Positions 58,864 to 59,743 of a stretch of DNA of 64,000 bases are shown here, in pieces. A model generated the notes under the pieces. That model saw only the letters and a program-made list of their open reading frames with translations. It did no database searches and was not told the DNA's origin. Numbering within the stretch: the stretch's first letter is position 1; every line of letters starts with the position of its first letter. The position numbers and the translations under genes are program-made. The stretch is from the NCBI RefSeq assembly GCF_988242995.1, contig NZ_OZ547043.1. One strand, 5' to 3'.

Positions 58864-59743
58864 ATGTCTTTAAACGATTCTAAAATCCGCAAGTTAAAAT
58901 CTTCTTCCCGTCCGGTAAAACTCTCCGACTCTCACGGTCTGTATCTGCTCGTCAATCCGGGCGGTTCGCGCATCTGGTATCTCAAATATCGTTTCAACGG
59001 AAAAGAATCCAGAGTCAGTCTTGGCGCATACCCGCTGGTCTCACTGGCAGAAGCCAGGCAACAGCGCGACGGTATCCGCAAGTTACTGGCGCAGAATATC
59101 AACCCGGCGCAGCAGCGCATGGCAGAGAAAGCCGCCTGCTCCCCTGAAAAGTGCTTTAAAGCGGTGGCGCTGGCCTGGCACAAAACCAACAAAAAATGGT
59201 CGGCTGATTATGCCGCCCGTATTCTCGCCAGTATGGAAAACCATATCTTCCCGGCGGTTGGTCATTTGCCCGTTGCCAAACTTAAAACGCAGGATTTCAC
59301 TGCCCTGCTGAGGGTTATTGAGGATAAGGGCTTTCTGGAAGTCGCGTCCCGCACGCGGCAGCAACTCAGCAACATCATGCGCTATGCCGTATAGCAGGGG
59401 CTTACCGAAAGCAATCCGGCGCAGCATCTGGATGGCGTTGTCTCCTCCCCCGTAAAGAATCACTACCCCGCGTTACCGCTGGAGCGGTTGTCCGAACTGC
59501 TTGGCCGCATCGGTGACTATCAGCAGGGCCGGGAGTTAACCCGGCTGGCGGAGGTGCTGACACTGCACCTGTTCATCCGTTCCAGCGAACTGCGTTTCGC
59601 CCGCTGGAGCGAGATCGATTTCAGGCACAAAATCTGGACCATCCCCGCCACCCGCGAGGCCATCGACAAAGTTCGGTTTTCGGGGCGTGGCGCAAAAATG
59701 CGTACTCCGCATATCGTACCGCTCTCCCGCCAGGCGATTGCCC
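58864..59743 (+). pseudogene. P4-family tyrosine integrase, disrupted (in-frame TAG at 59392-59394; 3' part replaced by IS1)
   Basis: N-terminus MSLNDSKIRKLKSSSRPVKLSDSHGLYLLVNPGGSRIWYLKYRFNGKESRVSLGAYPLVSLAEARQQRD is a typical P4-like integrase arm-binding region; the same frame continues after the amber codon (ORFs 58771..59394 and 59488..59748) and runs into the IS1 end. Confidence 0.8.

Follow-up and report, generated by a model that had tools for sequence, protein, structure and literature searches.

A P4-type integrase pseudogene cut by IS1 at asnT: the probable remains of an asn-tRNA island

The stretch of DNA analysed here, 64 kb long and called the window below, most probably carries the scar of a P4-type island that integrated at the asparagine tRNA gene asnT, suffered an amber mutation in its integrase gene and was then removed by an IS1-associated deletion reaching into the adhesin gene yeeJ; we put the probability of this account at about 0.93. 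It draws on the anatomy of the locus, an amber allele shared with other genomes, the lack of a target duplication around IS1, the lack of a right-hand attachment site (attR), and the structure of intact relatives. A sequence-only reading of the same DNA had pointed in this direction and is supported throughout and refined at two points: the stub does not come from the integrase of the Yersinia high-pathogenicity island (HPI), and the IS1 event took attR and 89% of yeeJ in addition to the end of the integrase gene. The features concerned are as follows.

58626-58701, plus strand: tRNA-Asn (GTT), asnT (ARAGORN; Rfam, 72.6 bits)
58702-58863, plus strand: left-end island DNA between asnT and the integrase start, departing from the empty-site sequence a few bases past the tRNA
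58864-59743, plus strand: integrase pseudogene, codons 1-293 of 420 (translation, Pfam, NCBIfam, alignment with full-length alleles)
59392-59394, plus strand: amber codon 177, TAG; CAG (Gln) in the intact O145 allele
59744-60511, minus strand: complete IS1, 768 bp (sequence, ORFs, terminal repeats)
60512-61268, plus strand: 3' end of the inverse autotransporter adhesin gene yeeJ, ~745 of its 7,077 nt being left

The integrase gene and its amber codon

The window runs serU, mtfA, asnT, the scar and then a glycosyltransferase-9 (GT9) gene; the order serU-mtfA-asnT-yeeJ-GT9-shiA matches that of annotated E. coli genomes, which argues that the tRNA gene is asnT and not another asn tRNA gene. An Rfam scan of 56000-64000 returned two tRNAs and nothing else. 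The tRNA-Ser gene serU (57545-57634) is a neighbouring integration hot spot that is empty in the window; in strains HS, O145 RM10425 and 19KM1803 prophage or integrase remnants are present at this site. The integrase start codon (ATG, 58864) follows the tRNA end at 58701 with the offset of 163 bp that had been read from the sequence. Homology with E. coli HS, in which the asnT site is empty, ends ~5 nt past the tRNA end (window 58706), and window positions 58500-59743 are 100% identical to the island-bearing strain CFSAN061761.

The stub retains the front 70% of a broken phage-P4-type integrase gene, full-length versions of which in other E. coli measure 1,263 bp, or 420 codons. The translation of 58864-59743 comprises 293 codons with one stop only, at codon 177. 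Pfam recognizes an arm-binding domain (Arm-DNA-bind_3, PF13356; stub residues 3-87, E=4.5e-24) and a central domain (Phage_int_M, PF22022; residues 98-191, E=3.9e-26), followed by a weak match to the catalytic domain (Phage_integrase, PF00589; residues 232-291, E=0.006), of which the first 60 residues remain; the NCBIfam integrase-domain profile PRK09692 is matched at positions 8-290 of 413 with E=4.4e-40. With such E-values in both collections the reading frame is far from chance, and the similarity to tyrosine recombinases on which the sequence-only reading depended is there. The window copy is 97.6% identical over 293 residues to the intact allele of O145 RM10425-C1, and the full-length O145 orthologue is in turn 50% identical to phage P4 Int (414 aa, E=7e-150); domain architecture and orthologue identity together make "P4-type integrase", the name proposed at the outset, correct.

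Conserved motifs place the catalytic residues of the full-length protein at R239, K278, H342-x-x-R345, H369 and Y379. The stub keeps R239 and K278; H342, R345, H369 and Y379 lie past codon 293, and since the IS1 cut falls after that codon, these last four catalytic residues, the tyrosine nucleophile included, are lost and the window copy does not have a complete R-K-H-R-H-Y catalytic domain. It is a derelict P4-type integrase by descent, without recombinase function.

The amber codon falls inside the central domain, and translation therefore stops within that domain independently of the IS1 cut. This in-frame TAG had been called at 59392-59394; it is confirmed as the single stop, and the allele turns out to be common to 265 of 5,426 complete E. 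coli genomes. That count comes from a query of 41 nt centred on the mutated base, so placed that a megablast match, with its 28-nt word, requires that base; it was found at 350 places, all at 100% identity. In six full-length copies from five genomes (L001, L003, L004, L005 and both copies in L013) TAG 177 is the only internal stop, and RefSeq marks copies of the amber allele as pseudogenes with the comment "internal stop". Relative to the intact O145 allele, dN/dS is 0.08 before the stop and 0.31 after it, values based on too few differences (8 after the stop) to carry weight. The sampled amber alleles show zero nucleotide differences past nt 260, from which the inactivation of the integrase looks evolutionarily recent.

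A separate observation concerns the O145 RM10425-C1 allele itself (20304-21566 of L002), the sole "intact" allele examined. Its codon 345 specifies Lys and not the second catalytic Arg, the region reading GHGLKAMA in O145, GHGFR in P4 Int and HPI Int, and GHGLR in the amber alleles; this open frame may also encode a crippled recombinase.

The IS1 junctions and the yeeJ fragment

Integrase codon 293 is joined directly to IS1 at 59744, in agreement with the earlier view that the 3' portion of the gene had been replaced by this element. The element is a complete IS1 with terminal inverted repeats, insA (60456-60181) and the insB (insB') frame (60262-59759) on the minus strand, and a visible A6C slippery motif for frameshifting. 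Its first bases at 59744 read GGTAATGACTCC... / GGTAATGACTCCAACTTATTGATAG..., one of the terminal repeats, and its end at 60511 reads ...GGCAGCATCACC; each end occurs once in the 64-kb window, and both match the IS1 terminal repeat sequences perfectly. The element is 99.6% identical to a copy annotated as IS1A in strain A23.

Insertion of IS1 normally produces a target-site duplication of 9 bp. None is present here: the nine bases on the left are CGATTGCCC and those on the right GAAAATTAG, and reference genomes have the two flanking sequences at loci separated by more than 8 kb. The missing duplication and the unrelated flanks rule out a simple IS1 insertion and fit the product of a deletion or recombination.

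Neither IS1 junction of the window is present in the 5,426 complete E. coli genomes. In public assemblies, 27 index blocks contain an 86-aa ORF that crosses the junction of integrase and IS1, with ERZ4562240 and ERR15396666 among the samples, and five contigs that were retrieved, one of them from a Hadza gut metagenome, span 59743/59744 at 99.6-100% identity; all of these contigs are shorter than 2 kb, as expected of short-read assemblies that break at IS1. The ORF and the five contigs together show that the junction is real and part of a circulating lineage.

On the other side of IS1 lies the yeeJ remnant, which encodes the C-type-lectin-like end of the adhesin. Window position 60513 corresponds to 18789 of the HS locus (L012, with yeeJ at 12456-19532), about nt 6,334 of the 7,077-nt gene, and ~6.3 kb of yeeJ, 89% of the gene, has been lost. 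With the 3' end of the A23 yeeJ (17493-18416 of L004) the right flank shares 99.9% identity. Related remnants elsewhere bear the annotations "YeeJ, missing N-terminus" and "intimin C-type lectin domain". Frequent truncation of yeeJ has been reported, with its adjacency to asnT proposed as the reason (PMC5595812).

The remnant also carries a 1-nt deletion in an A-run (61244-61248), two codons ahead of the native stop, and its frame ends in CYKTCDFPL followed by a stop; in A23 and HS the ending is CYKNL or CYKNI. The GT9 gene downstream (61517-62632, minus strand) is an intact ORF of 371 codons, with annotated homologues of 1,053 bp and a weak heptosyltransferase-like match; its counterpart in the closely related strain NT1F10 is cut by an IS1 deletion.

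Intact islands, attachment sites and eroded relatives

The integrase family is found in 478 of the 5,426 complete E. coli genomes, and in HS the site is empty, asnT being followed by yeeJ after ~310 bp; the locus thus shows the presence/absence polymorphism of a tRNA-associated island. Intact islands of this integrase lineage are 10-15 kb long and lie at asnT, asnU or asnV. Four islands bounded by the asn-tRNA repeat were examined.

O145 RM10425-C1, at asnT, 13.7 kb: HigA-type antitoxin, tssG, tssF, vgrG, PAAR
CFSAN061761, at asnT, 10.4 kb: Rhs core protein and immunity gene
A23, at asnT, 2.7 kb: amber integrase and one IS1, nothing else
A11, at asnU, 15.4 kb: 94%-identical integrase; AAA ATPases, HNH endonuclease

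Cargo therefore varies among relatives that share this integrase family: an Rhs toxin, type VI secretion (T6SS) genes, or AAA ATPases with an HNH endonuclease. Over the window's 880 nt the CFSAN061761 integrase shows no difference (100% identity). The A11 island (15009-30470 of L019) has an intact integrase, large AAA-domain proteins, and the HNH endonuclease together with an AAA ATPase, a cargo that looks like phage defence. The amber integrase occurs at both asnT and asnV in NCTC9967 (20304-21566 and 30276-31538 of L013) and in CFSAN061761 (13435-14697 and 41534-42796 of L014). In CFSAN061761 both copies are accompanied by the same Rhs cargo; in NCTC9967 IS1 replaces the cargo at asnT. The two CFSAN061761 integrase copies differ at 8 positions in nt 37-220 and share the TAG and an identical 3' part, a pattern that suggests gene conversion between them or duplication after inactivation. 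A literature search for a name for the non-HPI asn-tRNA island returned descriptions of HPI and pks only, which is a gap of the search and not evidence of novelty.

The 3' 16 nt of asnT (58686-58701), CCAGTCAGAGGAGCCA, form the attachment core on the attL side, and the intact islands have a further copy of this 16-mer at their right end, with attR at 33823 of L002 (O145 RM10425-C1), 10833 of L004 (A23), 32571 of L014 (CFSAN061761) and 30455 of L019 (A11). When HS is compared with island-bearing strains, homology resumes at this second CCAGTCAGAGGAGCCA followed by AATTC, and the two copies form a classical attL/attR pair. The window has the tRNA copy only: with up to 2 mismatches allowed, the 16-mer has no second copy in the whole 64 kb, and a general direct-repeat search of 58560-64000 found no relevant repeat. 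Nor is there island DNA between the stub and IS1, or between IS1 and yeeJ.

Of the follow-ups proposed with the sequence-only reading, the search for a repeat of the asnT 3' end downstream was thus without result in the window, and the search for an intact island at asnT in other genomes was successful, as with the 13.7-kb island of O145 RM10425-C1 and the 10.4-kb island of CFSAN061761. The view that the locus is the remnant of an asn-tRNA island is upheld by the empty site in HS and by the repeat-bounded islands with the same integrase in other strains.

IS1 has worn away this region in many lineages, with end points that vary from one to the next and deletions of graded extent.

A23: IS1 ~80 bp past a full-length integrase pseudogene; yeeJ whole
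HCP17S3_I4: IS1 in the same orientation, 12 bp farther from the integrase; 734 bp of yeeJ left
2022CK-00450: inverted IS1, with a junction (8589 of L005) 78 bp deeper into yeeJ
NT1F10: whole yeeJ and part of the GT9 gene lost
NCTC9967: deletion reaching amn
Res13-Lact-EB12-05: IS1 inside the integrase, the CDS being split at 5360/6083 of L017

The window's 22.7-kb flank has its best matches, at 99.8% identity and with NT1F10 among them, in pig, cattle and human commensal-type E. coli. HCP17S3_I4, the best candidate for the same two IS1 junctions, differs from the window at both; its right junction (8427 of L003) is 11 bp deeper into yeeJ. Three independent IS1-yeeJ junctions, those of the window, HCP17S3_I4 and 2022CK-00450, hence cluster within 80 bp in the 3' part of yeeJ (window 60512-60590), and in further strains IS1 lies a few hundred bp away (matches H72-H80). 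The 3' part of yeeJ may be a target hot spot for IS1.

Origin of the scar and its place among known systems

TAG and CAG differ by one base, and the stop could accordingly be put down to a sequencing or assembly error in a gene that IS1 alone interrupts. The same 41-mer, however, is present in 265 independently sequenced complete genomes, a count that rules such an error out, and TAG is also seen in metagenome and read-assembly contigs; the probability left to this idea is negligible. Identifying the stub with the Yersinia HPI integrase, so that the scar would mark a lost yersiniabactin island, has an obvious appeal, as HPI is the best-known E. coli island at asnT (PMC5595812, PMC7545054) and its integrase occupies the same position relative to the tRNA gene. 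The window gene nevertheless shares merely 74-76% of its DNA and 68.9% of its protein sequence with the E. coli HPI integrase (dS ~1.6-1.9), and it is 97-100% identical to integrases of non-HPI islands with Rhs or T6SS genes; the window has neither the HPI integrase allele nor ybt genes, and no ybt sequence follows the stub. Identity of ~75% at the nucleotide and 68.9% at the amino acid level rules out an HPI origin, which we regard as extremely improbable. The window integrase is a sister lineage of the HPI integrase, belonging to a smaller island family that uses asn tRNA genes. The sequence-only reading had named HPI just as an example, and its broader view of an asn-tRNA island holds, although the island in question is not HPI; the comparison it proposed, with integrases of known asn-tRNA islands, gave 97.6% amino acid identity to the O145 island and 68.9% to HPI.

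A functional role for what is left of the gene is also conceivable, if very unlikely: the 176-residue N-terminal product might have been domesticated as a DNA-binding protein, which would explain why the amber allele is retained. Comprising the arm-binding domain and most of the core-binding domain, this 176-aa product might occupy asn-tRNA att sites, and might modulate the integration or excision of other asn-tRNA islands, e.g. HPI or pks; the amber allele is sometimes found at two asn tRNA genes within one genome, and its 5' part survives in the window. Among the sampled alleles, however, the sequence after the stop is equally unchanged, which argues for recent mutation rather than selection on the fragment.

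The account we prefer is that of an asn-tRNA island lost through an IS1-associated deletion, for which we infer both the order of events and the exact mechanism of deletion; no observation speaks against the account as a whole. Site-specific recombination involving the last 16-21 nt of asnT would have brought the island in, placing the integrase next to the tRNA at attL and duplicating the tRNA end at the opposite boundary, attR. The integrase would first have mutated from CAG to TAG at codon 177, and IS1 would then have inserted into the island. A deletion associated with IS1 would finally have left one IS1 with integrase codon 293 on one flank and the final ~750 bp of yeeJ on the other, and would have taken with it integrase codons 294-420 (the catalytic core), all cargo, attR and ~6.3 kb of yeeJ. 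It would have arisen through intramolecular transposition starting at the ends of IS1, or else two copies of IS1 would have recombined. In our explanation attR is missing from the window because of this deletion, and with attR gone the scar is fixed and neither excises nor is excised normally.

The deletion could have come about in two ways, which we consider about equally likely, each a little short of even odds, and which lead to the same end product. Homologous recombination may have taken place between two directly oriented IS1 copies, the first at integrase codon 293 and the second within the 3' part of yeeJ, with excision of everything between them. Independent IS1 insertions in or next to the integrase and in the 3' part of yeeJ are indeed known (H72-H80), three different IS1-yeeJ junctions within 80 bp are what frequent insertion into yeeJ would lead one to expect, and the missing target duplication fits; against this, no genome with IS1 at either exact junction exists among the 5,426 complete genomes. 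Alternatively, one IS1 just past a full-length integrase may have generated adjacent deletions by intramolecular transposition in both directions, those to the right reaching into yeeJ and those to the left into the integrase. Adjacent deletions are a known effect of IS1; in A23 and HCP17S3_I4 an IS1 of the same orientation lies 80-95 bp past the integrase stop, and the right junction of HCP17S3_I4 is only 11 bp from that of the window. This route, however, requires two distinct deletions, and A23 and HCP17S3_I4 differ from each other by 12 bp in their left junctions.

It is textbook knowledge that tRNA genes harbour integrase pseudogenes, that islands become immobile when a flanking repeat is lost and that IS1 mediates deletions. 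The feature is an ordinary, non-functional genome scar of a known kind, hundreds of RefSeq genomes already have its pseudogene allele annotated, and it matters little beyond annotation. The proper label would be that of an integrase pseudogene, fragmentary and with an internal stop, at the attL of asnT, with IS1 and then the 3' fragment of yeeJ after it. Neither the YeeJ adhesin nor any cargo of an asnT island is left in the strain, which adds one more lineage with an IS1-eroded asnT-yeeJ hot spot, consistent with the frequent yeeJ truncation reported at this site (PMC5595812).

Compared with known systems, the stub shares with phage P4 Int and the integrases of P4-like islands the succession of PF13356 arm-binding, PF22022 central and PF00589 catalytic domains, and like those integrases it lies directly 3' of a tRNA gene, the intact islands being flanked by a repeat of the tRNA 3' end. 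Unlike P4 Int, the window copy is incomplete, carries a nonsense codon and has lost four of the six catalytic residues, and the target of its lineage is an asn tRNA gene, whereas phage P4 integrates at a leu tRNA gene. The HPI integrase has the same tRNA target, position, orientation, length (420 aa) and family as the full-length members of the window lineage, but constitutes a distinct lineage (68.9% aa, ~75% nt identity), and the cargo of HPI consists of yersiniabactin genes where that of the window's relatives is Rhs/T6SS genes or an AAA ATPase with an HNH endonuclease. HPI in E. coli is also fixed in place, its right-hand direct repeat having been deleted (PMC8209727). RefSeq annotates counterparts of the pseudogene in other E. 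coli, for instance CA899_RS09105 (CFSAN061761) and AOY76_RS09095 (A23), identical or nearly so, with amber codon 177, at asnT and often with IS1 next to them; these are full length (1,263 bp), whereas the window gene is cut by IS1 at codon 293. In having a complete IS1, without a target duplication, that joins sequences several kb apart, the locus is the same as other IS1-associated deletions in enterobacterial chromosomes and in no way unusual; its exact end points alone are particular to the window lineage.
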